This document shows positions 1-52,479 of a stretch of DNA of 64,000 nt, in pieces. The DNA comes from Ignavibacteriales bacterium (GTDB lineage: Bacteria > Bacteroidota > Ignavibacteria > Ignavibacteriales > SURF-24), in assembly GCA_036261625.1 (NCBI GenBank), contig DATAKL010000009.1, forward strand, positions 1,990 through 65,989, read 5' to 3'. The stretch's first letter is position 1. Every line of letters begins with the position of its first letter. Under the pieces are notes generated by a model. That model was not told the origin of the DNA and made no database searches. It saw nothing but the letters and a program-made list of their open reading frames with translations. The translations under genes were made by a program, and so were the position numbers.

Positions 1-132
1 CCCCTTGTAATTTATTCTATTTAGATAAGCGTTTATATCCATACGAATTTTATGCATGTTAAAAAATAAAAATTAAACATGCGGGTTGGATGATGCAATG
101 AAATTATTTATCGGGTTTCTTTTTTATATGCC

Positions 133-252
133 GCCCCTGACCGGGGCTGGGGATGCGTGGGGTGGGGATCATTAACCCGGGGTTTAGTCGTCCGCCTAAG
201 AGTCGGACTCCAGCACCCCGGGCTACAAATGTCTCGCCCGACTCAGTCGGGC
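133..252 (+). repeat. GC-rich modular hairpin repeat, single unit (copy R1)
   Basis: Hairpin GCCCC-tgacc-GGGGC and a G-rich tract GGGGATGCGTGGGGTGGGGAT. Outer stem CCCGGGG (176-182) / CCCCGGG (216-222) encloses hairpin GTCCG..CGGAC. Then CTACAAATGTCT plus hairpin GCCCGAC-tca-GTCGGGC. Same module order as 16811-16926, 25794-25897 and 52308-52425. Confidence 0.75.
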
Positions 253-4266: not shown

Positions 4267-5322
4267 TTAGTTTACGTCGACCTTCATATTATCGGTGTAG
4301 CTTCCTTTGGGCTCATCCACAATCTTCGCCCCTTCCGAAAGGCCGGTTCCCGAGACATCGGCAAACTTCCCGTCTAAAGTCCCACCGTTAAGCTGGACTT
4401 TCTTCAGGCGCTCACCTTCAACCTTAAAGACGTAGCGGTTCCGGTTTTCCTCAAGCACAGCCGTCCGGGGAAGAAGAAGAGCGTTTTCCTTTTCACCAGC
4501 TTTAATATTAATTGTAGCTGTCATGCCGAGATTAAGCTTTTCAGGCGAAGTTTTAAGCTTAATATAAACCCTGGATGTTTTTGTAGCCTCATCTGTTCTG
4601 GGCACAATCCTCTGTAGAACTCCTTCAAATCTCTCATCCGGATAGGCGTCGAAGGCTACTACTGCAGGCATACCCTTGTTTATCTTGCCAAGATCCTGCT
4701 CATCAACTTCCCCCTGAACGAGTATTGAATTAGGAGCCAAGATTTCAAAACATTCGGCGTTCGGAGTAAGATTGTCGCCAAGGTTTACCTTTACGTTAAC
4801 AAGCACGCCTGAAAATGGCGCTATAACTTCTGTTTTTGTGAGGTTCTGCCTTGCAATATCGAGCGCCACCTTTTTCTGATCGAGGCTTACTTTTGCCAGT
4901 TCATAGCTTTGTCTTGCATCTTCAAGCTCTTTTTTTGTGATGCTGTTTGATTTGTACAGGCTTTCTTTTCTTCCAAGATCCCGTTCTTTGGCCGAGAGGT
5001 CAATCTCTGCCGTCTTGATCTGGCTTTCGGCATCCCTAAGCCTCAGCTCCTGATCACTTCTGTCTGTACGGAGCAGAACGGTTCCTTTTTTTACTGTCAT
5101 CCCCTCTTTTCCGATTATATACTTTACTATTCCGCCCGACTCCGAGCGCAGCGCGGCAACAGAATCGGCCGTTACAGTTCCAGTAGCATAAATTAAGGTT
5201 ACAAGATTGCCCTTTGTAACCTCTACGGTCTTTACCTTTTCATGATTAAAAAAAGCTTTGTAAATGCCATAAATTACAGCGATAAGCACGAGGGAAACTA
5301 TGATGATATACTTTCTTTTCAT
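4267..5322 (-). CDS. HlyD/MacA-type periplasmic adaptor (membrane fusion) protein
   Basis: 351 aa. N-terminal TM anchor, coiled-coil segment (SDQELRLRDAESQIKTAEIDL...) and barrel-sandwich/beta-barrel C-terminal pattern. First gene of the 5-gene minus-strand operon. Confidence 0.85.
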   Translation of the reverse strand: MKRKYIIIVSLVLIAVIYGIYKAFFNHEKVKTVEVTKGNLVTLIYATGTVTADSVAALRSESGGIVKYIIGKEGMTVKKGTVLLRTDRSDQELRLRDAESQIKTAEIDLSAKERDLGRKESLYKSNSITKKELEDARQSYELAKVSLDQKKVALDIARQNLTKTEVIAPFSGVLVNVKVNLGDNLTPNAECFEILAPNSILVQGEVDEQDLGKINKGMPAVVAFDAYPDERFEGVLQRIVPRTDEATKTSRVYIKLKTSPEKLNLGMTATINIKAGEKENALLLPRTAVLEENRNRYVFKVEGERLKKVQLNGGTLDGKFADVSGTGLSEGAKIVDEPKGSYTDNMKVDVN

Positions 5323-5560
5323 TTATTTACCTGAATTAGTATTCCTGAAGGAAAAGCCGGCCGAAGAAGTAACCGCTTTTGATGAAGTTTAATTTAATGA
5401 ATGGGCTCTTTATATTCAAATCCCGTTAAAACTCCTTCTTTTGACTTATAATTTAAGGAGATTTTTTTATAAAAAATGTTCTGTGACTTTTTCTTTCAAA
5501 GTGCTTACCTTTGGGAAAACTGCTTTCATTTTTATTCAATATCATCGGGAAATAATTTTC

Positions 5561-7057
5561 ATGAAAAAACTTATTCTTTTTCTCTTAGCCTTTTCTTTTA
5601 CGGGGCTTTTTGCACAGGAGACCGTTCCCCCCAAAAGGGAATTCAGGGGCGCCTGGGTGGCAACGGTAGCCAATATCGACTGGCCCACAAATAAAAATGC
5701 CACCTCAGGAGAACAGATTGCAGAACTGGTTTCCATAATGGACAGGCTGAAGGCCTCGGGCGTTAATGCTGTTATATTCCAGATAAGAACCGAGTGCGAC
5801 GCCCTCTATCAGTCCAAAATTGAACCCTGGTCGTACTGGCTGACCGGAAAGCAGGGCAAAGCACCCGAGCCATTTTTTGACCCCCTGCAGTTTGCAATCA
5901 GTGAAGCCCACGCCAGAGGCATGGAGCTCCACGCCTGGTTTAACCCCTACAGGGCAGTTAAGGGGATAGGCGAATACGAAGCTGCCCCCAATCACGTCTC
6001 GGTTCTTCATCCCGACTGGCTTCTGACCTTTAAGGATTACAAGATGCTGGATCCGGGTCTTCCTGAAGTGAAAAATTATGTTCTCTCCATTGTCTCCGAC
6101 GTCCTCAGGCGCTATGACGTAGACGGAATTCACTTTGACGACTACTTCTACCCCTACGGACCCAAGGTCTCAAACGAGGACTCACTGACCTATGCAAAGT
6201 ATCACGGCAGCTTTACAAACGTCGACGACTGGAGAAGAAACAACATAAACAGCCTTATGGCAAGCATTTATGATACCATTAAGGTTATTAAGCCCAGGGT
6301 AAAGTTCGGTATAAGCCCGTTCGGAATTGTTGAAAATAAGTACGCCGGCACAGATGGTTTCCAGTCCTACAATATTCTTTACTGCGACCCGTTGACATGG
6401 ATTAAAAATAAGAGTCTGGACTACATGAACCCTCAGCTTTACTGGGAAATAGGCCACGCAAGGGCGGATTACGGAAAGCTTCTTCCCTGGTGGGCTTCTG
6501 TAACCAAGGATATGCACCTTTACATCGGACAGTTCTCCAGTCAGATGGCAGCTCCTAAATACAAGGGTAAGAAAACTGAGCTTGAAGACCAGATGAGGTT
6601 AAACCGCACAACTCCGAACGTCCAGGGAGAGGTATTCTTCAGCTCTAAGAGCCTGACAGATAACTATTCGGGTTTTGCTGACACCTTGAAGAATAATTTC
6701 TATAAGTATCCGGCACTTCCTCCCTTAATGCCATGGAAAGAGACCACGCCCCCTCTATCACCGGAAAACCTTACCGTTAAGGGGGATTCTACGGGAGCAA
6801 CCTTAGAGTGGACCGCCCCCAAAGCTGCCAGCGACGGAGAGACTGCAAGCTACTACGCCGTCTACCGCTTTACGGATAAGGATGAGATAAACACTGAAGA
6901 CCCGAGATTTCTCCTTGGTGTAATCTCTTCCAGGAAAACAAAGTATAAGGACCCCGTTAAGCTTTCTGAGGGCGCAAAGTACATATATATAGTTACAGCA
7001 CTCGACCGCCTGTTTAATGAAAGCGAAAAAAGCTCCACAACCCTGAGCCTTAAGTAA
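5561..7057 (+). CDS. glycoside-hydrolase-like GHL10 (YddW/COG1649-type) secreted protein with C-terminal Fn3-like domain
   Basis: Preferred start is ATG 5561 (MKKLILFLLAFSFTGLFAQ signal peptide), not the upstream ORF-track start. REFRGAWVATVANIDWP and GIHFDDYFYP motifs are typical of this family. Confidence 0.8.
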   Translation: MKKLILFLLAFSFTGLFAQETVPPKREFRGAWVATVANIDWPTNKNATSGEQIAELVSIMDRLKASGVNAVIFQIRTECDALYQSKIEPWSYWLTGKQGKAPEPFFDPLQFAISEAHARGMELHAWFNPYRAVKGIGEYEAAPNHVSVLHPDWLLTFKDYKMLDPGLPEVKNYVLSIVSDVLRRYDVDGIHFDDYFYPYGPKVSNEDSLTYAKYHGSFTNVDDWRRNNINSLMASIYDTIKVIKPRVKFGISPFGIVENKYAGTDGFQSYNILYCDPLTWIKNKSLDYMNPQLYWEIGHARADYGKLLPWWASVTKDMHLYIGQFSSQMAAPKYKGKKTELEDQMRLNRTTPNVQGEVFFSSKSLTDNYSGFADTLKNNFYKYPALPPLMPWKETTPPLSPENLTVKGDSTGATLEWTAPKAASDGETASYYAVYRFTDKDEINTEDPRFLLGVISSRKTKYKDPVKLSEGAKYIYIVTALDRLFNESEKSSTTLSLK

Positions 7058-7102: not shown

Positions 7103-7120
7103 GACTATCCGAAATTTCAT

Positions 7121-7688
7121 ACCAAACCGCTTTCAGCGGTTTCATATTTGTAGAAAAACGGACCCCAAAACAATTCAGCCCGCCAGAGGCGGTCTATATG
7201 CCTTTATTTACCTGAAAATATGAAACCACTGACGTGGTTTGGAAGAGGTTTTTGTTCCATATTGCTACAAATAGGTAGCCGCTAAAGCGGATAGAAAGGA
7301 ATGTCTCTATACTGTAGGGAATCCTCCTAACTGCGTTAGCAGTTACCTATTTGTAGGGACCGTGTAAAAAACCTCCCCGAACAGCGTAGCTGTTCCATCA
7401 GACTACAAATAGGTAGCCGCTAAAGCGGATAGAAAAGGAAAAACTTTGTTCTGAATACAAAGGGATTTTTCTAACTGCGTTAGCAGTTACCTATTTGTAG
7501 AAACAGGGACCCCAAAATCCATTCTGAACCACGTAGTGGTTCCATAGGCCAATTCATGCAAAATCTTCAACATGAAATTGTTTTTTTATTCCGTTCCTAC
7601 AAATAGGTAGCCGCTAAAGCGGTTAGGAAGGAATGTCTCTATATTGAAGGGAAATTTCCTAACTGCGTCAGCAGTTACCTATTTGTAG
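7121..7688. repeat. tandem array of nested palindromic multi-hairpin units
   Basis: Three 92-98 bp units at 7265-7356, 7403-7500 and 7597-7688. Each is CTACAAATAGGTA + hairpin CCGC-taaa-GCGG ... hairpin CTGC-gtta-GCAG + TTACCTATTTGTAG. They are separated by linker units GGACC..AAAA..-hairpin-TTCCATAGG, and a solo right arm lies at 7121-7153. Confidence 0.85.
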
Positions 7689-7808
7689 GAGTCAAACCGC
7701 CCTTAAATTTCTTTTCCGATTTACGAATTACTGACTGTTAATTTTGCCTAAAAGCTCTTATGTTTGTATCCATTACCAATCAAAAAACATATAAGAAAGC
7801 AGTCATAA

Positions 7809-9029: not shown

Positions 9030-9118
9030 TGTAGGGGCGGGCGGCGCCCGCCCGGAAGGGCAAAAACAATCAAATACAAAATGCCAAGCCGTTCGGGCGA
9101 GCGCCGCCCGCCCCTACA
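9030..9118. repeat. perfect 18-bp inverted repeat (GTAG-type, BIME-like), probably also the terminator of the U32 gene
   Basis: TGTAGGGGCGGGCGGCGC (9030-9047) is the exact reverse complement of GCGCCGCCCGCCCCTACA (9101-9118). The loop is 53 nt and contains small hairpins. A T-run follows at 9119-9125. Confidence 0.8.
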
Positions 9119-16572: not shown

Positions 16573-16668
16573 GAAATTTAGTGCCACAAAAGAAAAACCG
16601 CTTCAGGCCTTATGTGCCAACTCAATTAAAAGGCCGATGAAAGGTAAGCATCTTAAATGGAAGTTATT

Positions 16669-16926
16669 AAGCCCCGATGAGGGGCGATTTGTCTATAGCC
16701 CGGAGTGACCAAACCCGCCTTTGGCGGGTGCGGGAACTCCCGGGTAACGAATTCCCCAAATTCCCCAGAGCCCCGAGAGGGGCGATTTGTTCGGCCCGTA
16801 TTTATACAAGTCGCCCCTCTCGGGGCTCTTTTGGGGTGGGGGGATCCGTTTCCCAGGGGTTCAGTCGCCCCCATCCGGGGGCTTCCTCACCCCGGACTAT
16901 AGACAAATCGCCCCTCATCGGGGCTT
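16669..16926. repeat. 258-bp nested palindrome made of two inverted modular hairpin units (copy R2)
   Basis: 35-bp terminal inverted repeats, 16669-16703 vs 16892-16926, 34/35 complementary. Inner inverted pair GAGCCCCGAGAGGGGCGA (16768-16785) / TCGCCCCTCTCGGGGCTC (16811-16828). The right half has the same module order as R1, R3 and R4. Confidence 0.9.
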
Positions 16927-17120
16927 GTTAAATGCGTTAATCTGCATACTCTCCTTTCATTATTATTTTTGAATTAAATTAACGCCTCAGGCCTCATGAG
17001 GATTTCTTTCTTTTGTATTTTACTTATTCCTATAATTATTTAGATTTGCCATATTAGTCTAAAGAACTTTTTTTTTGGCTCCTTTTTTGGGAGTGAACTA
17101 AAATATAAAAGGAAAACATC

Positions 17121-20779: not shown

Positions 20780-20922
20780 GAATAGCCACGGCCTTTTAGG
20801 CCGTGGTTTAATGATTCCAAAAATATTTGGGCTTTAGCCCCCGATCCTATATCCGAAATCTGGGACTAAAGTCCCAGGTCTGTTTTGGGCATTTTTCCAC
20901 GACCTGAAGGTCGTGGCTATTC
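20780..20922. repeat. 143-bp multi-hairpin element with terminal inverted repeats
   Basis: TIR GAATAGCCACGGCC (20780-) vs GGTCGTGGCTATTC (-20922). Four internal hairpins: CCACGGCC-tttta-GGCCGTGG, GGGC-ttta-GCCC, CTGGGAC-taaa-GTCCCAG and CCACGACC-tgaa-GGTCGTGG. Confidence 0.8.
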
Positions 20923-21052
20923 ATGGAAATTTCGCTGCATTTTAACCCAATGCACCCTCTTTAGGGACTCATTTTTCCCGTTTTGTTTACCCCTTAAATC
21001 AGTACATTTTAAAGAAGACACGTTGTATATAAAACAAAGAAGGATAAAAAAT

Positions 21053-21763
21053 ATGCGTATAATTGGCAGATTATTATTTGCTATTTTTGTTTCATTCTCT
21101 GTTGTATCTTTTGTAAATGCACAGACGACTGACACAACCAGGAATAACGGCAGTATAAATAGCGGAACAAATAATAACCCGGACGCAACTGGCGGCGCCG
21201 TGCACACCCCTAACCAGAATCCGCCGGCTTCCGGCAGCTCTACTACACCCGGGACAAATAATCCAGGCACAACTGCTCCGGGTGCACCTGGCACTACTGC
21301 TCCGGGTTCTACAATACCTGCACCGGGATCAGTTCCTGCACCGGGATCAGTTCCTGCACCCGGATCCATTACAGCCGCTTCCGGCTCGGCTGCAGCTGAA
21401 GTTGAACAGGCAAGCAATGATTTCATGCAGGCTATTAACCGCGGCGATGCCGCTGCAGCAGCAGGATTCTATGCTGACGATGCTTTTCTTATGCCACCAG
21501 ATATAGATATGATTCAGGGTGCTAACGGTATTAAGAACTTCTGGGCTAAAGTTATATCCGTAGGAGGCAAGTTCGATACACTGACAACTTCCAAAGTTAA
21601 TGTAAACAATACAACAGTTGATGAAATAGGGCGTTATTTCCTCACCATCAACAGACCGGGGCTGGCTCCGGCGCAGGAAACGGGTAAATTTGTTTTCGTC
21701 TGGAAACGTCAGCCCGACGATACATGGAAGATCGTCACACACATGTGGAACAGAAACAAGTAG
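21053..21763 (+). CDS. secreted protein: Pro/Gly/Thr/Ala-rich linker plus C-terminal SnoaL/DUF4440-like domain
   Basis: ATG 21053 (MRIIGRLLFAIFVSFSVVSFVNAQ signal peptide) preferred, because the ORF-track start lies inside the repeat element. The C-terminus ...FVFVWKRQPDDTWKIVTHMWN is typical of DUF4440. Confidence 0.6.
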   Translation: MRIIGRLLFAIFVSFSVVSFVNAQTTDTTRNNGSINSGTNNNPDATGGAVHTPNQNPPASGSSTTPGTNNPGTTAPGAPGTTAPGSTIPAPGSVPAPGSVPAPGSITAASGSAAAEVEQASNDFMQAINRGDAAAAAGFYADDAFLMPPDIDMIQGANGIKNFWAKVISVGGKFDTLTTSKVNVNNTTVDEIGRYFLTINRPGLAPAQETGKFVFVWKRQPDDTWKIVTHMWNRNK

Positions 21764-21782
21764 TAAAACAGATCTCTTTTAT

Positions 21783-21815
21783 TTAAGGGGATGAAGCACT
21801 TGCATCATCCCCTTA
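21783..21815. terminator. bidirectional hairpin between convergent genes
   Basis: TTAAGGGGATG ... CATCCCCTTAA, an 11-bp stem lying between the stop at 21763 (+) and the stop at 21826 (-). Confidence 0.6.
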
Positions 21816-21825
21816 ACTTTACCTG

Positions 21826-22518
21826 TCATTCTTCTGTGAATAAAATGCTTCCCCCGTCTAAAAGAGGTCCATCGTAAAGCTCAAGAGTCTCATAGCCGTT
21901 TTTATTCAGGAACGATCTTATTTCATCCCCCTGGGGATGATATTTCAGGCTCCCGCAGAGAAAAACCGTATTATCCATTACTCCGCAGGCGCCGCCGAAA
22001 AAACCGTGCCTGAAGCCCGGAAGCACAACGCTTTCAGAGGAAACATAAAGAACTTCCAGTCCCGTTTCTTTTAACTTCTTATAAATCCCTTCGTCAGAAG
22101 TAATAAAACTGTCTGTCTTCAAAGGCAGCAGGCTGCAGCGGCAGTAGCCCTGACCGACATGAATTGTCTGTTTTTCTTTGGAATACTCCAGAATCTTTCT
22201 TTCCGTAATATCCAGTCGGTGAATAAGGAAATTCCGGCTCACTGAGGCGTTGTAGCGTGCCGAATCCGGATACTTCATTCCTACGGGAGACGTTCCTTTA
22301 ATATAGCTTATCTTTTTTTCATCCAGCACTCTGAAGTATTCAGCCGGGATGTTGGGTGAAGCAATAAGATGAGATGAACTCAGGAAGAAAAATATGTCGG
22401 GATGGCCTGAAATTGCCTCATATGTTATTCCTGAAGTTGCAAATTCAAGCACTTCACCGTAGTATGCAAGAGTCTCCTTAGCCTTTTCGGGCATTTTCCT
22501 GTCAATTATAATCTGCAC
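21826..22518 (-). CDS. hypothetical protein, translationally coupled to the radical SAM gene
   Basis: 230-aa ORF whose start overlaps the upstream radical SAM gene by 17 nt. No motif I can name with confidence. Confidence 0.5.
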   Translation of the reverse strand: MQIIIDRKMPEKAKETLAYYGEVLEFATSGITYEAISGHPDIFFFLSSSHLIASPNIPAEYFRVLDEKKISYIKGTSPVGMKYPDSARYNASVSRNFLIHRLDITERKILEYSKEKQTIHVGQGYCRCSLLPLKTDSFITSDEGIYKKLKETGLEVLYVSSESVVLPGFRHGFFGGACGVMDNTVFLCGSLKYHPQGDEIRSFLNKNGYETLELYDGPLLDGGSILFTEE

Positions 22519-23518
22519 GGAACTGCCTTTCCTCCAGCGAGGGATCGCTAATAAACCTGACTTTATGGAAATTCACCAAAAGCTCTTTTTTGTTGCGCCC
22601 GTTATAGCCCACTGCATAATTAAATTCCGAAGGGGGGACTGAAATGGTAAGGACTTTTCCTTTTTTAGTGCTTAAGGGCTTCAGTATCTCATTCCAGATT
22701 TCAGTTGCGACCAGCTCCCGGAAGGATACGTGATAAGGTCCTGCCGCAAGATCCTCACCCGAAAGAAGCCCTTCGGAAGGGTGGAGCCCCATGCGTATTA
22801 TACTGACACGGGCCTCTTCAAAAATTTTCGTGACCTCTTTTGCCTGACTGACGGCTTCACCGAGTTCGAGAGGCCTGTATTTGCCCGATAAGTACAAACT
22901 GTGAAGTTTTGTTCCTTTTATTACAAGCGTGGGATAGACTCTTGTATTACCGGCTCCCAGTTCCACAATCCGCCTTGCCGTAAAGACCGATTTTTCAGGC
23001 GTGTCGCCCGGAAGCCCCAGCATCATCTGCAGCCCCAGTGAAAAACCGTCCTGAATGATAAGGCGCGAGGCTTCTTCAATATCTTCCGTCTTGTGGCCGC
23101 GCCCCGAGAGCCTTAAGACATCCGGGTCCAGCGACTGTGCCCCAAGTTCTATGGAGCTTACGCCGTAATGTTTCAGCATATGGAGCTTTTCAGGTGAAAT
23201 GTAATCCGGACGCGTGGAAAGCCTGATGCCGTGGATCCTTCCTGCGGAAAGATAATCCGCTGCAGCACCCAGATACATCTCCTGAATGAGGGGATCTATT
23301 CCCGTAAAGTTTCCCCCGAAGAAACCTATTTCAATATGGCTCCCAGCCTTAGGAATTGTATTAAGATGCTCCTCTATGGTTATCCTTACTTCCTTTAGAT
23401 CGGGGCTTTCCTCATGCCCCGAGATTTTCCTCTGATCGCAGAAGACACACTGGAAAGGGCAGGCAAGCTCCGGAACAAATACCGGTATGGTGTAATGTTT
23501 TATTTTATCTGAACTCAT
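22502..23518 (-). CDS. radical SAM protein, ELP3-like (COG1243-type) without acetyltransferase domain
   Basis: CPFQCVFCDQ (CxxxCxxC) near the N-terminus, in the context HYTIPVFVPELACPF typical of ELP3-like radical SAM enzymes. Confidence 0.8.
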   Translation of the reverse strand: MSSDKIKHYTIPVFVPELACPFQCVFCDQRKISGHEESPDLKEVRITIEEHLNTIPKAGSHIEIGFFGGNFTGIDPLIQEMYLGAAADYLSAGRIHGIRLSTRPDYISPEKLHMLKHYGVSSIELGAQSLDPDVLRLSGRGHKTEDIEEASRLIIQDGFSLGLQMMLGLPGDTPEKSVFTARRIVELGAGNTRVYPTLVIKGTKLHSLYLSGKYRPLELGEAVSQAKEVTKIFEEARVSIIRMGLHPSEGLLSGEDLAAGPYHVSFRELVATEIWNEILKPLSTKKGKVLTISVPPSEFNYAVGYNGRNKKELLVNFHKVRFISDPSLEERQFRADYN

Positions 23519-23794
23519 CGTTGAATGCCGGCTTACTTACCGGATTATTCCTTTACTTAAATGATTATACTTTGTAATTTCCGGCTGAAACATACAAAGT
23601 TTGCATAAATAATTCACCACAGGCTTCCGCCCCTTTTTAAGGGCGCACGACAGACAGTAAAGAGCTTTTTTTATCGGCTAAAAATGGATTTACTCTTATC
23701 CTGAATTTTCTTAGTATAAATGAAGATACATTATGTTTGAAGAGGGTGTCAAATATTCCAGCACAATATTTATTAACTCTTTTTAGAAGGCAAA

Positions 23795-24229
23795 ATGTTT
23801 AAGAAGCTTTTATTTCCCGTTTTTTTTATTTCAATAATTCTGCTTTCCGGCTGCCGCGAAAAACTCAACCTTACCGACCCCGGGCCGGCGGAAAATCTTC
23901 TGATTTCAAGCACTGATGCGCCGAATGTCCTCTATATGAAAACACCTGCAGGAGGAGAAGTAATGCAAAAAGGGTCCCGGTTCAGCATCAGCTGGTTTGT
24001 ATCGCCTGCAGTAAAAACCGTTTCGCTGACACTCTTCAGAAAGACTGAAGAGATTACAGGAATCTCCGGGGCCACGGAAAATGACGGGACATTCAACTGG
24101 AAGATCCCGACCAATATTCCCGCCTCAGTGCATTACAGGATAAGACTGAGCAACACGATGAGTCCCGACGAGTACATTTTCAGTGAATACTTTACGATAG
24201 CTTCCTCTGATACGATGCAGGCTTTTTAA
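23795..24229 (+). CDS. small lipoprotein, function unknown
   Basis: 144 aa. Signal peptide with lipobox ILLSGC, and a beta-rich body. Confidence 0.55.
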   Translation: MFKKLLFPVFFISIILLSGCREKLNLTDPGPAENLLISSTDAPNVLYMKTPAGGEVMQKGSRFSISWFVSPAVKTVSLTLFRKTEEITGISGATENDGTFNWKIPTNIPASVHYRIRLSNTMSPDEYIFSEYFTIASSDTMQAF

Positions 24230-24262
24230 GACTCCCGGAAATTTCCAGCGCTGAAAAACCTG

Positions 24263-25408
24263 TTATTCAAATTTGAGGCGGAAGTTTACCACCTCGGGAG
24301 TATTGCCCGTTCTTATCGGGGGTCCCCAGCCTCCGAAGCCGCTTGAAACGTAATAGTTTGTATTTCCTTTTTTCTTATAGCCCCAGCTGAGTTCGTAGAC
24401 CCTGTTTGTTATAAAATTAAAAGGCCAGAGCTGTCCGTGATGCGTATGGCCCGAGATCTGAAGGTCCACGCCGTTATCCTCCGCCTCCTGAAGGTCAAAA
24501 GGCTGATGATCCATCATAATTACCGGTTTTGTTTTATCCACCTGAAGCATCAGTTCCTGTAGAGATTTTCTTTTCTTGATCTGATTAACCGAGCGGTCGT
24601 CGCGCCCAATGAGATAAACTCCGCCTTCAAGCACTACAACCGAATCTCTCAGCATTGTAATTCCATGGTCTGTAAGGTACTGTGTAGCCGCCTGAATTCC
24701 CCCGAAAAACTCGTGATTGCCCGGCACGGCAAATATTCCGTAGCGGGATTTAATTTTTCTTAAGGTTTCACCCAGATTTTTCTTTATTACGGGGCCCAGA
24801 TCCTCATCCACAATATCCCCGGGGAGCAGAACCACGTCGGGATCAAGATCATTTATTTTCTGAACCAGACTGTCGAGGCGCGAGTTGCCGACAAGAGTGC
24901 CTAAATGTATATCGGAAGCAGCAACAATGTTTAGCGATTTTACCGGGTTTGTCTTTTTATTTATTGCCAGCTCCAGCACCTTAAGCCTGGGGTGAACCGC
25001 ATTGATCCTCCCGAAGATAACTGTAAGGGCTACAATTGCCAGGACTGCAACTCCGGTATAGTACTTAGCCCTCGTGTAATCTTTTGTTATAAAGGCAGGG
25101 AAGAATCCTGTAAAATGGTTCGCAAGGCGGAGAATGTCCAGTAAAACAACGGCAAATAAAAAGTAGACCATAGCCGCCAGCCAGAAAGCGCCGATCCACA
25201 TTAAGGGATCGCTTACAGCGTAGAACGCCTTTTTTTCGAGCCATCTTGCCGCAAAATAAGAAAGCGCCAGAAAAAGAAAAATAATGAGATAATAGGCTCT
25301 TACCGGTGAGCCTTTAGGGATCGCCTGCCAGCCGCGGATAAATATATAATAGTTAATGAGTCCGTATAAGAGCAGTACGATGGAAAAAAATATAATGAAA
25401 TTCTTCAT
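24263..25408 (-). CDS. membrane-anchored metallophosphoesterase (YkuE-like)
   Basis: Four or more N-terminal TM helices, then motifs SDIHLG, GDIVD, GNHE and GHTHHG. Confidence 0.85.
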   Translation of the reverse strand: MKNFIIFFSIVLLLYGLINYYIFIRGWQAIPKGSPVRAYYLIIFLFLALSYFAARWLEKKAFYAVSDPLMWIGAFWLAAMVYFLFAVVLLDILRLANHFTGFFPAFITKDYTRAKYYTGVAVLAIVALTVIFGRINAVHPRLKVLELAINKKTNPVKSLNIVAASDIHLGTLVGNSRLDSLVQKINDLDPDVVLLPGDIVDEDLGPVIKKNLGETLRKIKSRYGIFAVPGNHEFFGGIQAATQYLTDHGITMLRDSVVVLEGGVYLIGRDDRSVNQIKKRKSLQELMLQVDKTKPVIMMDHQPFDLQEAEDNGVDLQISGHTHHGQLWPFNFITNRVYELSWGYKKKGNTNYYVSSGFGGWGPPIRTGNTPEVVNFRLKFE

Positions 25409-25438
25409 AACTAATTCAATTTTACTGTTAAATAAAAA

Positions 25439-25460
25439 GAAAACCGGAAGACCGGTTTTC
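25439..25460 (-). terminator. hairpin with T-run on the minus strand
   Basis: GAAAACCGG-aaga-CCGGTTTTC. On the minus strand it is followed by TTTTTA. Confidence 0.45.
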
Positions 25461-25580
25461 TTAAAAATATAGATAATTACTCCTCAAGTTGCCAGGTGCA
25501 AAAGCCGGGGTATTATTTTCTTTGCCCGGATCAAATTTTAAGTATCAGCCTAACAATTTATAAATCGGATGTCTTCAGAT

Positions 25581-25897
25581 GCCGCGGTCAGCGGCATAGT
25601 GTCGATAGCCCCGGGTGACGGAATTCGCCTTTGGCGAATGACCGAACCCGGGGTTATGGATAAAAAAATTTTCGGAGCCGCGGTCAGCCGCGACATGTTC
25701 CGATTGCACAACGGATACGTTTTAATGAAATTAAATTGTCGCTTATTTTTGTTGGGAATTTCCATAACGGGTTCCCCCCCATACGAAAAATGGCGCGGCT
25801 GACCGCTGCGCTTGGGGATTGTGGGGGGATTCCGTGATCCCGGGGTTCAGTCGCCCCTCTGGGGCTTCTTCACCCTGGGCTATCGACACCAAGCCGC
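25581..25897. repeat. 317-bp composite palindromic hairpin element (copy R3)
   Basis: Terminal inverted repeats GCCGCGGTCAGCGGCATAGTGTCGATAGCCCC (25581-) vs GGGCTATCGACACCAAGCCGCTGACCGCGGC (-25897). The right arm 25794-25897 is a full unit. The left arm is an inverted, diverged unit. Confidence 0.85.
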
Positions 25898-25951
25898 TGA
25901 CCGCGGCTTTAAGACAATATAAATATTAAATTGATACCTAAATCCTGAAAT

Positions 25952-28030
25952 CTATTCTCCCATCTTAATTCTTATATCCAGAGCGTAAATGGCGTTTGTT
26001 TCTGTAATTACCAGGGGATTTATATCGAACTCCTCAATGCGCTTGTTTTCAATCATCATACGGGCTGCCGACTTGATTACTTCCCTCAGGCAGCGGATAT
26101 CGGCCGGAGCCTCCCCGCGGACGCCTTTAATTATCTGCCCGATCTTTGTTTTATTTATCATCTCATTAACATCTGAATCCGACATAAAGGCCGACTTGAT
26201 GAGGGTATCATTGATAATTTCAACATATTTGCCCCCTGTGCCGAACATGATCATAGGACCGAATGACGGGTCACGGAAGCCTCCGAGCAGTATCTCATGC
26301 TTAACTTTAATATAGGGCTGAATAAGAAAACTGTTCAGTGTGAAATTTTTCCGTCCGAACTCCTCCGCCATATTCTTTGCTTCTTTGAGGAGGCTATCCC
26401 TTGAAGGGATGTTAAGCCTTACGGCATTAAATTCAGACTTATGCACTACTTCGCGGCTTACTCCCTTAAGGACTGCCGGAAAGAAGTTTTCCGGAATCGT
26501 GTCCAGCTCTTCCTGTTTAAGAAGAAGCGATTTAACAACAGGTATATTATAGTCCTCCGCAATTTTCAAAACCTCTTCCTGCAGGAGATTCCCCGCGTGA
26601 AATTTGTACCTATCCTCACCCGGGTGTCCGCTTTCTTTCAGACGGCTCGGGAAGCTTTTTTCAATTCTGAATTTTCTTTTCCTGTAGAAGAGCATATTTG
26701 AAATTACTTCTGCCGGATCCTCAGGATTCCGGAAAAGGGGTATTCTTGGGCACGGCCGATGGCGGTAGTAATCCCAGAACTCGGGCAGGGGCATATAAAC
26801 CTGGAAAAGAGGCTTATGGGACTTAATTTCCGAGACAGCCTCCACCACATTGGAAGGCTGAACCATTACGGGCTCAACAAATATGGAAATTACACTGTCT
26901 ACATTCTCATCCTGAAGCAGCAGCTCATTTACCTGGCGGTACGTTTCAGCCGAGCCTCCGGGGAGCAGGTCCACCGGGTTTTCAACGCTTCCCTCGGGAT
27001 GCACTATCTGGCGGAGCTTCATTTTGGTTTCACTTGTCAGTTCAGCTAAAACGAGGTTTTCCTTCTCCAGCGCATCCACGGCAAGAATGGCAGGTCCCCC
27101 TGCATTTGTTACAACTGCCACTTTCTTTCCATTAGGAAGGGGGAAGTTTTCAAAACCCTTTGCCGTATTAAAAAGCTCGTTTAAGTCGTTAACCCTTACA
27201 ATGCCGAACTGGTTTAAGACGGCTTCAACCACCTTATCCATGCTCCCCAGGGCTCCCGTGTGTGAAGATGCGGCTTTCATGCCTCCGGAGGTTTTGCCTG
27301 CCTTTAAGACAATTGCAGGCTTTGTGATTTCGCCTCTTACAAAAGGAGCTATAAATTCCTTTCCGCTGGTAAAGCTTTCAAGGTAGAAAGTGAGTGTTTG
27401 TATATCGCTGTTTGACTGCCAGTAATTTAGGATATCATTTTCATTTATGTCGGCCTTGTTTCCCACGCTGATAAAATGAGCAAAACGGATATCGGTTTCT
27501 CTAAGAGAGTTTAAGACTGCCGCCCCCAAAGCTCCCGACTGCGATAAAAATCCCGTCGAGCCGCACTCGGGCTTTTCAGCAACGAAAGTTGCATTCAGCT
27601 TTATGTCATCCAGAGTATTGATAATGCCCATACAGTTAGGGCCTACAAGGCGGGCGCCCGACTGTTTTATCTTCTGCACAATTCTTTTTTCCGCCTTCGC
27701 GCCTTCAGCACCCACTTCCTTAAAGCCCGCGGTTATAAGCACTATTGATTTTACCCCTTTTTGCAGGATGCTGTCTATGGTCTCCTCGGCCGAGGCCTTG
27801 GGAACGAGCACAACTGCCATATCCACGGGCCTGTCGACTTCCTCAACCGTGTGGTAGCATTTAAGTCCAAGAATTGTTTCGGCCTTAGGGTTAACGGGGA
27901 GTATTTCCCCTTTATAGCCGTAGGAAAGCATGGTTTTAAGGAGCTCGTAGCCGATGCTTTTTTCCTTTGTGGAAGCCCCGGCAACAAGGACGCTTTTAGG
28001 ATAAAAGAAACTGTCCAGCTGGAAATTCAT
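25952..28030 (-). CDS. ADP-forming acetyl-CoA synthetase family protein (fused CoA-binding/ligase and ATP-grasp domains)
   Basis: 692 aa. N-terminal CoA-binding domain (SVLVAGASTKEKSIGY), succinyl-CoA-synthetase-like middle region and a C-terminal ATP-grasp domain. Confidence 0.85.
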   Translation of the reverse strand: MNFQLDSFFYPKSVLVAGASTKEKSIGYELLKTMLSYGYKGEILPVNPKAETILGLKCYHTVEEVDRPVDMAVVLVPKASAEETIDSILQKGVKSIVLITAGFKEVGAEGAKAEKRIVQKIKQSGARLVGPNCMGIINTLDDIKLNATFVAEKPECGSTGFLSQSGALGAAVLNSLRETDIRFAHFISVGNKADINENDILNYWQSNSDIQTLTFYLESFTSGKEFIAPFVRGEITKPAIVLKAGKTSGGMKAASSHTGALGSMDKVVEAVLNQFGIVRVNDLNELFNTAKGFENFPLPNGKKVAVVTNAGGPAILAVDALEKENLVLAELTSETKMKLRQIVHPEGSVENPVDLLPGGSAETYRQVNELLLQDENVDSVISIFVEPVMVQPSNVVEAVSEIKSHKPLFQVYMPLPEFWDYYRHRPCPRIPLFRNPEDPAEVISNMLFYRKRKFRIEKSFPSRLKESGHPGEDRYKFHAGNLLQEEVLKIAEDYNIPVVKSLLLKQEELDTIPENFFPAVLKGVSREVVHKSEFNAVRLNIPSRDSLLKEAKNMAEEFGRKNFTLNSFLIQPYIKVKHEILLGGFRDPSFGPMIMFGTGGKYVEIINDTLIKSAFMSDSDVNEMINKTKIGQIIKGVRGEAPADIRCLREVIKSAARMMIENKRIEEFDINPLVITETNAIYALDIRIKMGE

Positions 28031-32350: not shown

Positions 32351-32461
32351 TTCTTTCTAATTTTCCGGGCGGAACTTTAAGCCCGGATGCAATTTTCTTC
32401 TAAATTAAGTAACTTAAGTTAGTTCATCACAAAATACTAATAAAACTAATGAGACAGTTAT

Positions 32462-32749
32462 ATGAATCTGCATGAATTAAGACAGAAAAGGGATCGCATT
32501 TTGCAGATAGCCTCTCTTTACGGGGCAAGGGATCTGCGGATTTTTGGTTCCATTGCCCGAAACGAGCAGACTGAAAGCAGTGATGTGGACATTTTAGCAA
32601 AAATGGAAAAAGGGACGACCTTATTAAGGCATATTTCTCTGGTCCATGCACTTGAAGAAGAATTAGGGATAAAAGTAGATGTGGTTTCTGAAAATGCTAT
32701 TAAAGGCCGAATTAAAGAAAATATTATGCGTGAGGTAATTCAGCTTTGA
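32462..32749 (+). CDS. MNT-type nucleotidyltransferase antitoxin (copy 1)
   Basis: FGSIARNEQTESSDVDIL (GS..DxD minimal nucleotidyltransferase motif). 4-nt overlap with the HEPN gene. About 90 percent nt identity to 50388-50675 by eye. Confidence 0.9.
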   Translation: MNLHELRQKRDRILQIASLYGARDLRIFGSIARNEQTESSDVDILAKMEKGTTLLRHISLVHALEEELGIKVDVVSENAIKGRIKENIMREVIQL

Positions 32750-33087
32750 GAAATGATACTGAATGGCTGAAAGATATTTTAGATGAAATTGCGCTGATTG
32801 AAAAGTATTCAGTGAAAGGAGAACTAGCCTTCCAGAAGGATGAATTAATTCAGACATGGATGATTCACCACTTGCAGACAATTGGTGAAGCAGCCGGTAA
32901 ACTGTCTGAAAATCTAAAACAAAAATATCCCTCAATCCCCTGGAGAGACATCATCTCCATGCGTAACTTTATAGTGCATCAGTATTTTGGAGTTGACCTG
33001 GAGGAAATCTGGAATACTGTCACCCATGATATCCCGGTTCTGAAAAACAATCTCAATCAAGTCCTAAAGGATCCCGATAATTCTTAG
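32746..33087 (+). CDS. HEPN (DUF86/HepT-type) toxin
   Basis: Rx4-6H motif RNFIVHQY. 113 aa. TTG start overlapping the MNT stop. Confidence 0.85.
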   Translation: MRNDTEWLKDILDEIALIEKYSVKGELAFQKDELIQTWMIHHLQTIGEAAGKLSENLKQKYPSIPWRDIISMRNFIVHQYFGVDLEEIWNTVTHDIPVLKNNLNQVLKDPDNS

Positions 33088-33108
33088 TTGCGTATCCAAA
33101 CTAATCCC

Positions 33109-33159
33109 CGGAGCCGCGGTGGCCTGCCCGTCTTTGACGTGGCCGCGACATGTTCTGAT
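33109..33159. repeat. fragment of the GC-rich hairpin repeat family (copy R5)
   Basis: CGGAGCCGCGGT...CCGCGACATGTTCTGAT matches CGGAGCCGCGGTCAGCCGCGACATGTTCCGAT at 25673-25704. The loop is expanded from about 4 to about 23 nt. Confidence 0.65.
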
Positions 33160-33235
33160 GAGAAGAACCATTTCAGAATTACAATAAATTTGGCTAAATT
33201 CGCGGAAGTGTCTAATATTTAAAGTCATAAATCGT

Positions 33236-49819: not shown

Positions 49820-50056
49820 ATGGCGAATGAACAATCAGGTTCTAATCCTCTTGAGAATATAAAGAATTTAAGTGTTGCTGAGCGGATACTCATTGTAGAA
49901 GAGATCTGGGACAGCATCTTAAATTCAAACGAGGAATTCCCGCTGTCTGATGAACAGAAAAATGAATTGGATAAACGTTTAGAAGCCCATGGTAAAAATC
50001 CAAACGAGGTAAAACCCTGGAGTGAAGTCAGAGACAATATCAGAAAAAAACTATGA
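49820..50056 (+). CDS. putative addiction-module antitoxin (TIGR02574/Unstab_antitox-like)
   Basis: LSVAERILIVEEIWDSI motif. 78 aa. 4-nt overlap (ATGA) with the downstream toxin gene. Confidence 0.7.
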   Translation: MANEQSGSNPLENIKNLSVAERILIVEEIWDSILNSNEEFPLSDEQKNELDKRLEAHGKNPNEVKPWSEVRDNIRKKL

Positions 50057-50352
50057 ATTATAAGGTGTTGTTTCGGGCTGAAGCTGAAGAGGAACTCCTT
50101 GAGGCTGTTGGCTGGTATGAAGACAGAATGAAAGGATTAGGATCAGCCTTTCTTTTAAGTATTGAAGCCGCAATTGATTCAATTTCCCGCAATCCCGAAT
50201 CCTATCCCAAAATCTATAAAAATATAAGACGTGCCCTGATTAGAAGATTTCCCTTTGGAATTTGTTATTTTGTTGAAAAAAACCGCGTCATAGTGCTTGC
50301 TGTTTTCCATGTACATAGAAATCCTAAAGAATGGAAAAAACGAATATCGTAA
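50053..50352 (+). CDS. RelE/ParE-family toxin
   Basis: 99 aa. A..E..EA..WY pattern at the N-terminus and RFPFGICYFVEKNRVIVLAVFHVHRNP at the C-terminus, typical of ParE_toxin. Confidence 0.7.
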   Translation: MNYKVLFRAEAEEELLEAVGWYEDRMKGLGSAFLLSIEAAIDSISRNPESYPKIYKNIRRALIRRFPFGICYFVEKNRVIVLAVFHVHRNPKEWKKRIS

Positions 50353-50387
50353 AATCAATTTGTTAATAACACTACTGAGACAATTAT

Positions 50388-50675
50388 ATGAATCTGCTTG
50401 AATTAAGACAGAAAAGGGATCGCATTTTGCAGATAGCATCTCTTTATGGGGCAAAGGATTTGCGGATTTTTGGTTCTATTGCCCGAAACGAGCAGACTGA
50501 AAGCAGTGATGTGGACATTTTAGCAAAAATGGAAAAAGGGACAACCTTGTTAAAGCATATTTCCCTGGTTCATGCACTTGAAGAGGAATTGGGAGTAAAA
50601 GTAGATGTAGTTTCTGAAAGTACTATTAAAGGCAGAATTAAAGAAAATATTTTGCATGAGGCAGTTAAGCTTTGA
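50388..50675 (+). CDS. MNT-type nucleotidyltransferase antitoxin (copy 2, orphan)
   Basis: 84/95 aa identical to copy 1 by eye, and about half of the nt differences are synonymous. Only a few-nt stub of the HEPN partner follows (TTGAGAAATGA..). Confidence 0.85.
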   Translation: MNLLELRQKRDRILQIASLYGAKDLRIFGSIARNEQTESSDVDILAKMEKGTTLLKHISLVHALEEELGVKVDVVSESTIKGRIKENILHEAVKL

Positions 50676-51322: not shown

Positions 51323-52255
51323 TTGAAAGCTATAGCCAGCATGAAACAGTTCGTTGGAATCAAAACCGAAAGCGAATTAAAAAGAAAAGAGGAGCCTAAA
51401 AGTAGAACAAGAGATTTCATTAAGAATCTTTTGTTTGCCCTTATAGGGGCTCTTGTTATCAAAACATTTTTCCTTGAATCATCAAGAATCCCTACCGGCT
51501 CCATGGAAGGGACAATGCTGGTTGGAGACTTCGTACTTGTAAACAAAATGATCTATGGCTCATCCACGCCAAGAAACATTCCATTTACAAATATTTCGCT
51601 CCCTTTCTATACACTCCCTGCTTTTCGTGAGCCCAAAAGGGAAGATGTTGTTGTTTTTGATTACCCGGGCAATTCTGATGAATTGGAATCACCCGTTATT
51701 ATGAGCTATGTCAAAAGGCTGGTCGGCCTGCCGGGCGATACGATCCAAATAAAAGATAAAGTACTGTTTGTAAATGGACGGGAATTCCGGAGGCCTCCGA
51801 ACATTCAATATATTGATCCTGTAGTAAGACCTGCAGGAATGGATGAGAGCGATATATTTCCAGGATCTGCCAATTGGAACAGGGATAACTACGGCCCTAT
51901 AGTTGTTCCCGGAAAGGGAGAGGTAATAAAGCTAAATCCTTCCAACCTTGAACAGTGGAGAACTATAATTGACCGCGAATTTGGACGGCGGGTTGTAAAT
52001 GTTTCCGGCAATCAGGTTACCATTGATGGAAAGCCCGCCAGTTCATATACTCTGAAGAAGGATTATTATTTTATGATGGGTGATAACAGGGATAACAGCG
52101 CAGACAGCCGGTATTGGGGATTTGTACCGAGAGATAAGATAATCGGAAGAGCTGAAATAGTATATTGGTCGTGGGACCCATCCATTCCTTTTTATGAATT
52201 ATTTGATTTATTGGGATCGGTCAGATTTAGCAGAATTGCCAGACTGATAAAATGA
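51323..52255 (+). CDS. lepB: signal peptidase I
   Basis: Catalytic Ser box IPTGSMEGTM, Lys box VKRLVGLPGD and GDNRDNSADSRYWGFVP. The start is TTG 51323 or ATG 51341. Confidence 0.92.
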   Translation: MKAIASMKQFVGIKTESELKRKEEPKSRTRDFIKNLLFALIGALVIKTFFLESSRIPTGSMEGTMLVGDFVLVNKMIYGSSTPRNIPFTNISLPFYTLPAFREPKREDVVVFDYPGNSDELESPVIMSYVKRLVGLPGDTIQIKDKVLFVNGREFRRPPNIQYIDPVVRPAGMDESDIFPGSANWNRDNYGPIVVPGKGEVIKLNPSNLEQWRTIIDREFGRRVVNVSGNQVTIDGKPASSYTLKKDYYFMMGDNRDNSADSRYWGFVPRDKIIGRAEIVYWSWDPSIPFYELFDLLGSVRFSRIARLIK

Positions 52256-52307
52256 CAATATATAATGATTTAATTTCATTTATATATTTGTTGTGGCATC
52301 GGAATAT

Positions 52308-52425
52308 GGCGCAGCTGACCGCAGCGCAATGGGATTGTTGGGGGATTCTTTGGTCCCGGGGTTCAGTCCCCGCCAAAGGCGGGTTCCTCACCCTGGGCTA
52401 TCAATACCAGGCCGCTGGCCGCGGC
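52308..52425 (+). repeat. GC-rich modular hairpin repeat, single unit (copy R4)
   Basis: GCGCAGCTGACCGCAGCGC hairpin and G-rich tract GGGATTGTTGGGGGATT. Outer stem CCCGGGG/CCCTGGG encloses CCCGCC-aaa-GGCGGG. Then CTATCAATACCAG plus GCCGC-tggcc-GCGGC. Lies between convergent genes. Confidence 0.8.
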
Positions 52426-52479
52426 ATTTGAAGAAAGCTTTCGGCCGGCGGAGGATTTAATATCCTGGCCATGAGAAAA

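Follow-up and report, generated by a model that had tools for sequence, protein, structure and literature searches.

A REPIN-like inverted doublet in an Ignavibacteriales genome, probably explained by a Y1 transposase

What is the palindromic DNA at positions 25581-25907 of this stretch of an Ignavibacteriales genome, and how did it come to lie there? The stretch, hereafter the window, comprises 64,000 nt of a metagenome-assembled genome (MAG; GenBank assembly GCA_036261625.1, contig DATAKL010000009.1, positions 1,990 to 65,989), and positions given without a locus name refer to it. Two minus-strand genes enclose the palindrome: on one side lies the stop codon of a gene for a 692-aa ADP-forming acetyl-CoA synthetase (ACS; 25952-28030), on the other the start of a gene encoding a 381-aa metallophosphoesterase (24263-25408). 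A preliminary description, made from the sequence alone, had presented it as a palindromic, composite copy within a family of dispersed repeats. Our results agree with that description and add a link to Y1 transposase genes, absent from it, that probably explains the family. With a probability of roughly 0.7, the locus is a REPIN-like doublet of a compound family resembling repetitive extragenic palindromes (REPs), explained by a Y1 transposase (IS200-like, subclass 1.2), and the family is a non-autonomous single-stranded-DNA hairpin element of one Ignavibacteriales clade.

Two complete units make up the palindrome

The object at 25581-25907 consists of two complete ~125-nt units placed head-to-head around a 77-nt spacer (Table 1). 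Its ends form a 38-nt inverted repeat (25581-25618 versus 25870-25907, 92% complementary); further in, 25677-25702 and 25784-25809 form a second inverted repeat. With up to 2 mismatches allowed, the window contains seven copies of the terminal 15-mer GCCGCGGTCAGCGGC, where chance would give 0.03. A covariance model, R1, was derived from 25 units, some in the window and some in MAG loci; it has 142 positions, flanks included, and was run on the window without filters. The scan, which the preliminary description had suggested, revealed exactly six full units (106 to 128 bits) and weaker matches in a cluster of short units at 7115-7707. The order within a unit is leader (..AAYATGkC), hairpin A, G-rich tract, B domain, CTAY box, and hairpin C, the B domain being a long stem, P2 (CCCGGGG/CCCCGGG), that encloses hairpin B.

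An exact-pattern scan covering one genome per species found the B domain repeated in four MAGs: Ignavibacteria bin-C14, "Syntrophomonadaceae" MAG164, "Acidobacteriota" MAG223, and Candidatus Sumerlaeales LC101. R1 gave 65 matches in 260 kb of loci from these MAGs and none in 566 kb around the orthologous gene of relatives with ≤62% protein identity, represented by 80 metagenome contigs. With the exception of the Sumerlaeales copies, the family is confined to a narrow clade. The B-domain pattern had no match in IMG/VR viral contigs. MAG164 and MAG223 have the GC content of the window, and MAG164 is syntenic with it at 89% protein identity; the labels Syntrophomonadaceae and Acidobacteriota (JBLNAZ01 and JBLMYS01; loci L002-L021, L119, and L126) are probably binning or naming errors. 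The labels of two metallophosphoesterase homologues, P0010 and P0015 (Methanococcaceae archaeon, 70% identity, and Bacillota, 65%), likewise look misplaced.

How does the composite structure of the doublet fit this plan? Every sequence detail quoted in the preliminary description is present, including hairpin B of the left unit U4 (ATTCGCC-TTT-GGCGAAT), its A/T-rich tract where other units are G-rich, and a recurrence at 33109-33159; the right arm, U5, is the canonical unit that it was said to be. The right end had been placed at 25897, which cuts the terminal hairpin GCCGCTGACCGCGGC, and the element ends at 25907. A supposedly extra central hairpin, CGCGG-TCAG-CCGCG followed by ACATGTTCCGAT (25679-25704), exists but is not extra: it represents the leader and hairpin A of U4, which is inverted, and it aligns column for column with CGGAATATGGCGCAGCTGACCGC in the unit that begins at 52300 and with the right-arm leader. 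The module replacement that had been proposed is not an event in this copy, although the family is modular in that short units lack the entire B domain. U4 is 85% identical to a unit of MAG164 (L003, 681-807), and the AT-rich tract and ATTCGCC hairpin B are common to both, so that they mark a subfamily rather than a replacement in situ.

Two mirror-image open reading frames (ORFs) overlap the doublet, one of 71 aa (25550-25765, minus strand) and one of 77 aa (25569-25802, plus strand). Both are artefacts, as had been supposed, because they have no Pfam match, the region is absent at orthologous loci, and homologous doublets match them only as fragments scattered across different frames. All six frames of the GC-rich stretches are open for 30 to 116 codons. 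The leader ATG (ACATGTCGC) was also considered as a start codon and was rejected; the frames that follow it vary in length and frame between units, from indels in the G tract.

The structure of the element is far beyond chance. The doublet core folded as single-stranded DNA at -98.9 kcal/mol (z = -10.2), and 25529-25951 folded as RNA into one long hairpin (-196.9 kcal/mol, z = -12.2); the values for the single units were -62.1 kcal/mol (z = -6.2) for U4 and -58.3 kcal/mol (z = -2.3) for U5. Across 42 aligned units, 94.4% of cells were paired and 17 of 23 pairs showed changes on both sides. None of 500 shuffles reached the observed pairing, and sliding the partners left 26 to 60% paired. Hairpins A, B, and C covary, and P2 is conserved in sequence. 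The stems hold 13 G.U pairs and 8 A.C mismatches, favoring neither strand, which fits hairpins that act in DNA.

Could the units instead be structured RNA genes or cis-elements, such as a small RNA or a stabilizer or terminator of the 3' untranslated region, with the palindrome formed by two divergent or convergent copies? The covarying helices would suit this explanation, as would the GC content of the units (56 to 62% in a genome of 43.7%), their 3' intergenic positions beside terminators, and the conservation of the B domain even in the 58% GC Sumerlaeales MAG. We nevertheless regard it as quite unlikely. Rfam gave no match in the whole window at gathering thresholds and only chance-level matches up to E = 10 for 25400-26000, the stems show no G.U strand asymmetry, both orientations occur relative to neighboring genes, and a promoter scan found nothing specific inside the element. 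Moreover, the units are not conserved at orthologous sites in relatives of 74 to 89% protein identity, and the association with Y1 transposases would be left unexplained. A secondary, exapted RNA role is compatible with the transposase explanation that we favor. Two more specific ideas were dropped: the likeness of GGTTCAGTC to a tRNA T arm has the wrong loop length and position 58, and its CCCC partner is used by hairpin B; and integron attC sites, invertons, and G-quadruplexes do not suit copies that are dispersed among housekeeping genes and a G tract that is absent from U4 and the L003 unit.

Insertion and the origin of the doublet

Was the doublet inserted, or is it an ancestral part of this intergenic region? 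In five syntenic relatives (L118/L125, L119, L121/L124, L122, and L123), whose metallophosphoesterases are 74 to 89% identical to that of the window, the gene order is kept: valyl-tRNA synthetase (ValRS), ACS, metallophosphoesterase, Kre9-like, radical SAM, and DUF6873. The spacer between the ACS and metallophosphoesterase genes measures 133, 120, 141, 141, and 121 nt in these relatives and 543 nt in the window. The doublet is therefore an insertion in the lineage of the window relative to the five relatives, and the comparison of orthologous intergenic regions proposed in the preliminary description bears out its reading. In the alignment, the extra ~400 to 420 nt, made up of the 327-nt core and AT-rich outer arms, follow the ACS stop codon and precede a conserved block with a hairpin plus T-run at its end, just upstream of the metallophosphoesterase start.

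The site of the second doublet of the window likewise measures 548 nt, versus 121 and 130 nt in relatives. The opposite case was found downstream of a 5'-nucleotidase gene, where L119 (8226-8361; MAG164) and L124 (10759-10902) carry a unit and the window (171-nt spacer) and L125 have none. Presence and absence in both directions among close relatives show that the family is mobile or was so recently. We found no consistent target duplication at the junctions of either doublet or of the L119 unit, in intergenic DNA that is too diverged for base-exact junctions. Two candidates for such a duplication, a 16-nt direct repeat, CGCYTCAGGCCTYATG, near the second doublet and TTATTCAAGA near the L119 unit, were rejected since neither generalizes. 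Orthology of the single unit U1 with the unit of L031 was not established, L031 being devoid of the 195-aa gene that separates U1 from an ABC ATPase gene.

An element of 330 to 410 nt with long inverted-repeat ends, at a site that is empty in relatives, resembles a classical miniature inverted-repeat transposable element (MITE), that is, a deletion derivative of a DDE-type insertion sequence moved via its 38-nt terminal inverted repeats with a short target duplication. We think this very improbable. Single units without a partner are no rarer than doublets and are not bounded by terminal inverted repeats; no convincing target duplication was found at either doublet; and what look like "inverted repeats" are entire structured units that compensatory changes have maintained. 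The sole transposase found between or beside units, at three loci, is a Y1 HUH enzyme.

Did the doublet arrive as such? Minus/plus doublets also occur at the unrelated loci L004 (2519-2659/2725-2865), L010, L015, and L021 of other MAGs. Their spacer lengths are similar, and beyond the outer hairpins C the doublets of different MAGs are no longer conserved. The B domain has the form GGTTCAGTCG..CTTCCTCAC in right arms and usually GGTTCCCGCA..TTTGGTCAC in left arms. One potential explanation is that a single unit was inserted and that an inverted duplication, by template switching at a hairpin, then copied unit and flank in place, so that the doublet as such never moved. Inverted AT-rich outer arms that are not common to doublets elsewhere would follow from this, and the left flank of the second doublet does hold an inverted copy of the native T-run and hairpin of the right flank. 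The two arms at 25581-25907, however, are only ~70% alike and differ systematically in the forms of tract and B domain, and unlike arms are paired minus/plus in this way at L004, L010, L015, and L021 and around the transposase gene tnpA as well. An old, inherited doublet architecture fits this recurrence better, and we consider duplication in place unlikely as the whole account. As to whether the doublet moved in one piece or was built locally, the unshared outer arms favor a local component and the recurrent architecture favors a doublet form that was inherited.

Association with Y1 transposase genes

Which enzyme might act on such units? Locus L011 of MAG223, retrieved by DNA pattern alone, carries two inverted units (5134-5298, minus strand; 6105-6245, plus strand) 800 nt apart, and between them lies an ORF for a 167-aa Y1 HUH transposase (5432-5935). 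The protein matched Pfam Y1_Tnp at 93.8 bits and NCBIfam transpos_IS200 at 82.4 bits (cut-off, 55). Units are again near the genes of its homologues in MAG223 (L129, 68% identity) and MAG164 (L126, 57%). At L129, five short units on the minus strand lie upstream of tnpA and units in the order (+)(-)(+)(-) lie downstream; at L126, a remnant hairpin lies upstream and two plus-strand units lie downstream. Within the 1.0 Mb of DNA examined, tnpA occurs at L011, L129, and L126 only, and the products from these related MAGs are 162 to 167 aa long.

As units flank tnpA in the same minus/plus layout, the doublet looks like a transposase locus that lacks the gene. At L126, the 28 nt after the remnant hairpin agree at 27 positions with the spacer of a doublet also in MAG164, that of L010; the doublet spacer therefore corresponds to the place of tnpA. 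Such a match was found only for L010 and L126 within MAG164, and the 25707-25783 spacer revealed no tnpA remnants. Three proteins (HEX2868437.1, HEX2866888.1, and HEX2868488.1) are 80 to 84% identical to the L011 product and are probably encoded by the window's own MAG, judging from the accession block of HEX2866043.1, a 100% protein match to the window. The tnpA paralogues are 57 to 84% identical rather than near-identical copies, and all contigs recovered for P0128 represent the same single locus.

Proteins of the L011 type carry the motifs DHVH (HuH), WQ, and YIQNQEEHH and a conserved C-terminal domain, SF-EEYLKILKDF-VEY--KY-F. By these motifs, the transposase appears to belong to subclass 1.2 (Y---Q--HH) of Quentin et al. 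(2018; PMC6006769), which it also resembles in size (~150 to 167 aa), low copy number, and Bacteroidota relatives. It differs in the surroundings of the gene: in the related MAGs, hairpin units flank tnpA and are found scattered elsewhere in the genome too. The table entry for subclass 1.2 lists no associated repeats (PMC6006769).

The units also bear a REP signature, fully in its position but only about half canonical in its sequence. Among 42 units, the tetranucleotide abutting the 3' strand of P2 is CTAC in 23 and CTAT in 19, at an invariant position, so that the complementary strand reads GTAG (23/42) or ATAG (19/42) at the foot of a ~45-nt imperfect palindrome. A tetranucleotide directly at the foot of the palindrome is the defining layout of canonical REPs (PMC6006769; PMC3733652). 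The longer motif CTAYARAYA has ten matches in the window, where 3.5 would be expected by chance, and nine of the ten lie inside units.

By analogy with the TnpA proteins of the IS200/IS605 group (IS608 and ISDra2) and with E. coli TnpA-REP, the Y1 transposase would bind the hairpins and the CTAY/RTAG tag on single-stranded DNA, as exposed at the replication fork, and would cut and rejoin hairpin units with no target duplication. The enzyme may be supplied in trans by one of the three tnpA genes that the window's MAG appears to encode and may act on gene-less units and doublets.

Several observations weigh against this explanation. The 64-kb window holds no transposase gene. The L011 protein scored 34.5 bits with the NCBIfam model for REP-associated tyrosine transposases (RAYTs), REP_Tyr_transpos, which has a cut-off of 80. 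Among solved structures, ISDra2 TnpA is the nearest (E = 2e-12), and E. coli TnpA-REP was not among the matches in the PDB. In both arms of the 25581-25907 doublet, the foot reads ATAG where canonical REPs have GT[AG]G. Doublets of different MAGs have unlike AT-rich outer arms, so that the doublet could stem from local inverted duplication rather than from movement in one piece. With nearest relatives at 88 to 89% protein identity, intergenic DNA is too diverged to define a base-exact junction, a target sequence, or the lack of a target duplication. Finally, the covariation counts take in copies related by descent, in an alignment that was fitted to the model.

How far might the association between subclass 1.2 and such units extend? 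In a spot check of one gene, a Sphingobacterium hungaricum homologue (54% identity) has doublets of a two-hairpin unit on both sides. This unit reads TTAATT-GCGCACCTACGGCGCGC, ~20 nt, then GCTACAAACATTTA-GCACCTACGGTGC, in the form "hairpin ... CTACAAA-N5-7-hairpin," and its plan is that of the short units of the window: hairpin A, linker, CTACAAATA-N4-5, hairpin C. A tentative extension, which we rate at somewhat less than even odds as a whole, is that subclass 1.2 enzymes, so far described as IS200-like orphans of Bacteroidota and Cyanobacteria lacking associated repeats, are REP-type, that their cognate two-hairpin unit (hairpin A, linker, CTAC/GTAG tag, hairpin C) is conserved from Sphingobacterium to Ignavibacteriales, and that the Ignavibacteriales unit grew to 125 nt by the addition of a GTAG-footed B domain.

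Comparison with known repeats, other copies, and meaning

The family is known in kind; the enzyme subclass, the unit size, and the unit architecture are new. A search of the literature on Ignavibacteria repeats or Bacteroidota RAYTs returned nothing specific beyond PMC6006769 and PMC3733652. Like the REP/REPIN-RAYT systems (E. coli REPs and bacterial interspersed mosaic elements [BIMEs]; Pseudomonas fluorescens REPINs), the units are extragenic, multicopy, and palindromic with a foot tetranucleotide, and they occur singly, as inverted doublets, and as clusters of alternating orientation, as in BIMEs. In the related MAGs, a small Y1 HUH gene is flanked by inverted copies, and distinct paralogues go with distinct repeat types, as evidenced in MAG223 by the long units that flank the L011 gene and the mainly short units that flank the L129 gene. 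Unlike a REP palindrome of 20 to 40 nt, however, the Ignavibacteriales unit is ~125 nt long with three hairpins and a G-rich tract, and its resemblance to a long REP is limited to the ~45-nt B domain. The foot is GTAG in about half of the copies and ATAG in the rest, and the transposase is of class 1 (IS200-like, subclass 1.2) rather than a class 2 RAYT.

In its transposase, the family is closest to the IS200/IS605 elements, whose gene-less derivatives are the palindrome-associated transposable elements (PATEs). Hairpins A and C of one unit share a strand and tend to match in type (GCCCC/GCCCC or GCGGC/GCCGC), reminiscent of left-end and right-end hairpins; terminal inverted repeats are not needed, and no target duplication was seen. 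The differences are that the units flank tnpA in inverted and not direct orientation, that tnpB is absent, and that tnpA is low in copy number whereas the hairpin units are many.

A third comparison is with the pneumococcal BOX, Neisseria Correia, and enterobacterial ERIC elements, which are 100 to 400 nt long and strongly structured, have modules that are present, absent, or duplicated, and are intergenic and often cotranscribed with neighboring genes. Correia elements have TA duplications and DDE-type ends. The Ignavibacteriales family is similar to these elements in size, modularity, structure, and intergenic place and differs in its link to a Y1 transposase; no cognate Y1 transposase is known for BOX, Correia, or ERIC.

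Table 1. Members of the repeat family in the window, with the parts of the doublet at 25581-25907 (parts of U4 are in plus-strand coordinates; scores are R1 covariance model matches)
Feature	Position	Strand	Remarks
Unit U1, single	128-252	+	108.9 bits; GTAG foot; conserved 3' extension to ~288
Short-unit cluster	7115-7707		~Seven ~95-nt units, alternating orientation, no B domain
Second doublet	16664-16931		~16628-16982 with 3' extensions; 112.5 and 128 bits
Unit U2 (left)	16664-16790	-
Unit U3 (right)	16806-16931	+	R1 match; 15-nt spacer from U2
Whole inserted palindromic element	~25537-25945		GC-rich doublet plus weakly inverted AT-rich outer arms; extent from arm-to-arm alignment
Left unit U4	25581-25706	-	AT-tract subfamily; match at 25570-25708(-), 106.1 bits
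U4 hairpin C	25581-25595
U4 ATAG/CTAT box	25599-25611
U4 B domain	25609-25654
U4 hairpin B	25623-25639
U4 AT-rich tract	25655-25675
U4 hairpin A	25677-25694
U4 leader	25695-25706
Central spacer	25707-25783		77 nt, AT-rich, between the two leaders; position of tnpA in transposase-bearing loci
Right unit U5, canonical	25784-25907	+	Match at 25778-25918(+), 118.1 bits
U5 leader	25784-25791
U5 hairpin A	25792-25812
U5 G-rich tract	25813-25838
U5 B domain	25838-25879
U5 hairpin B	25853-25865
U5 CTAT box	25880-25892
U5 hairpin C	25893-25907
Solo hairpin A and leader fragment	33109-33159	-	Enlarged loop, CCGCGG..CCGCGACATGTTCTGAT; weak match at 33050-33163(-), 9.8 bits
Unit U6, single	52300-52428	+	116.2 bits; between convergent genes

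Long units occur about once per 10 kb of the window, and all six, as well as the short-unit cluster, lie between ORFs. The convergent neighbors of U6 are a lepB-like gene (51323-52255, plus strand) and a 398-aa ORF (52480-53676, minus strand). In the cluster at 7115-7707, the R1 matches (30.9, 24.6, 17.3, and 13.3 bits) skip the B-domain positions of the model. Its units consist of hairpin A, a TTTTGGGG (GGGG) tract, a CTACAAATA box, and hairpin C, with seven CTACAAATA boxes overall, and several copies have GTAG directly 5' of a hairpin (AATAGGTAGCCGCTAAAGCGG). A second alternating cluster was found at L129 (1127-1697).

Type I units, those with GCCCC-type hairpins, carry a conserved ~35-nt 3' extension, TTAGTAATTGCGTTATTCTAAATGCTCAsCTTTCAT (253-288, 16628-16663, and 16932-16982), that is common to most MAG copies and absent from GCCGC-type units, including the 25581-25907 doublet. 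An 11-codon micro-ORF, MKAENLELRNH, on the reverse of this extension was rejected, its stop codon being early or missing in several copies.

Some other repeats and duplications were observed in the window. At 9030-9118 lies a canonical-looking REPIN, TGTAG-GGGCGGGCGGCGCCCGCCC, a 29-nt spacer, and an inverted copy ending in CCCCTACA; its 30-nt arms are 90% complementary, and it occurs once in the window and in 0 of the 131 other loci examined. It may belong to another tnpA paralogue of the genome. A gene for an MNT-like nucleotidyltransferase is duplicated (regions 32462-33087 and 50388-50675), with 92% nucleotide identity between 32438-32737 and 50364-50663. A HEPN/DUF86-like ORF adjoins only the first copy, and the fragment at 33109-33159 lies just 3' of its stop codon. 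Ahead of the second copy is a ParE-type/antitoxin-like pair (49820-50352), for which the family names were read off the translations.

Among the other MAGs, bin-C14 (JAAXKQ01) carries, at L008 (3900-4935) and 15 other loci, a long unit inside a 0.7- to 1-kb mosaic of repeated modules: long units, short units, and tandem repeats of the AACCTnGAACCT type. The mosaic recurs at 82 to 96% identity with modules present or absent. Sumerlaeales LC101 (58% GC) has three units (L026, L033, and L037) of the same architecture, at 62 to 69 bits, beside GC-rich tandem repeats. Their B domain is nearly identical to that of U1 (ACCCGGGGTTTAGTCGT..GCACCCCGGGCTA) in a different phylum, and either horizontal spread or bin contamination could account for these copies.

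What does the doublet do to its neighbors? It lies between the ACS stop codon and the conserved hairpin plus T-run and is thus likely to be transcribed with the ACS mRNA, as a 3' tail with strong secondary structure; any effect on the stability or termination of that mRNA is speculation. Only ~30 nt separate the hairpin itself (11 bp; 25437-25462, minus strand) from the metallophosphoesterase start codon downstream; L118, L119, and L121 retain the hairpin, and in L123 it has diverged. It could be an attenuator or else the terminator of ACS, with transcription reading through into the gene that follows.

A short-read Logan contig (SRR13766244_678471; L001), identical to the window from 20897 to 25608, breaks off within the region of the doublet's left terminal hairpin. 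The repeat family therefore breaks short-read assemblies, which accounts for contig breaks in these MAGs. For annotators, the 71-aa and 77-aa ORFs are a caution: they should not be called genes. For the neighboring genes, the insertion probably means that a ~400-nt, very stable hairpin has been added at the 3' end of the ACS transcript.

The REP/REPIN-RAYT system is the best-studied case of a domesticated transposase that lives with its own population of miniature elements, and it is known almost only from Proteobacteria, with class 2 enzymes. The locus studied here points to the same relationship in Ignavibacteriales, and perhaps in Bacteroidota generally, with a class 1 enzyme and a larger, modular unit. 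It gives the subclass 1.2 enzymes, reported with no partner DNA, a candidate substrate. If the tentative extension from Sphingobacterium to Ignavibacteriales is true, the near-identical B domain in the Sumerlaeota MAG would imply either spread between phyla or a second, selected function.

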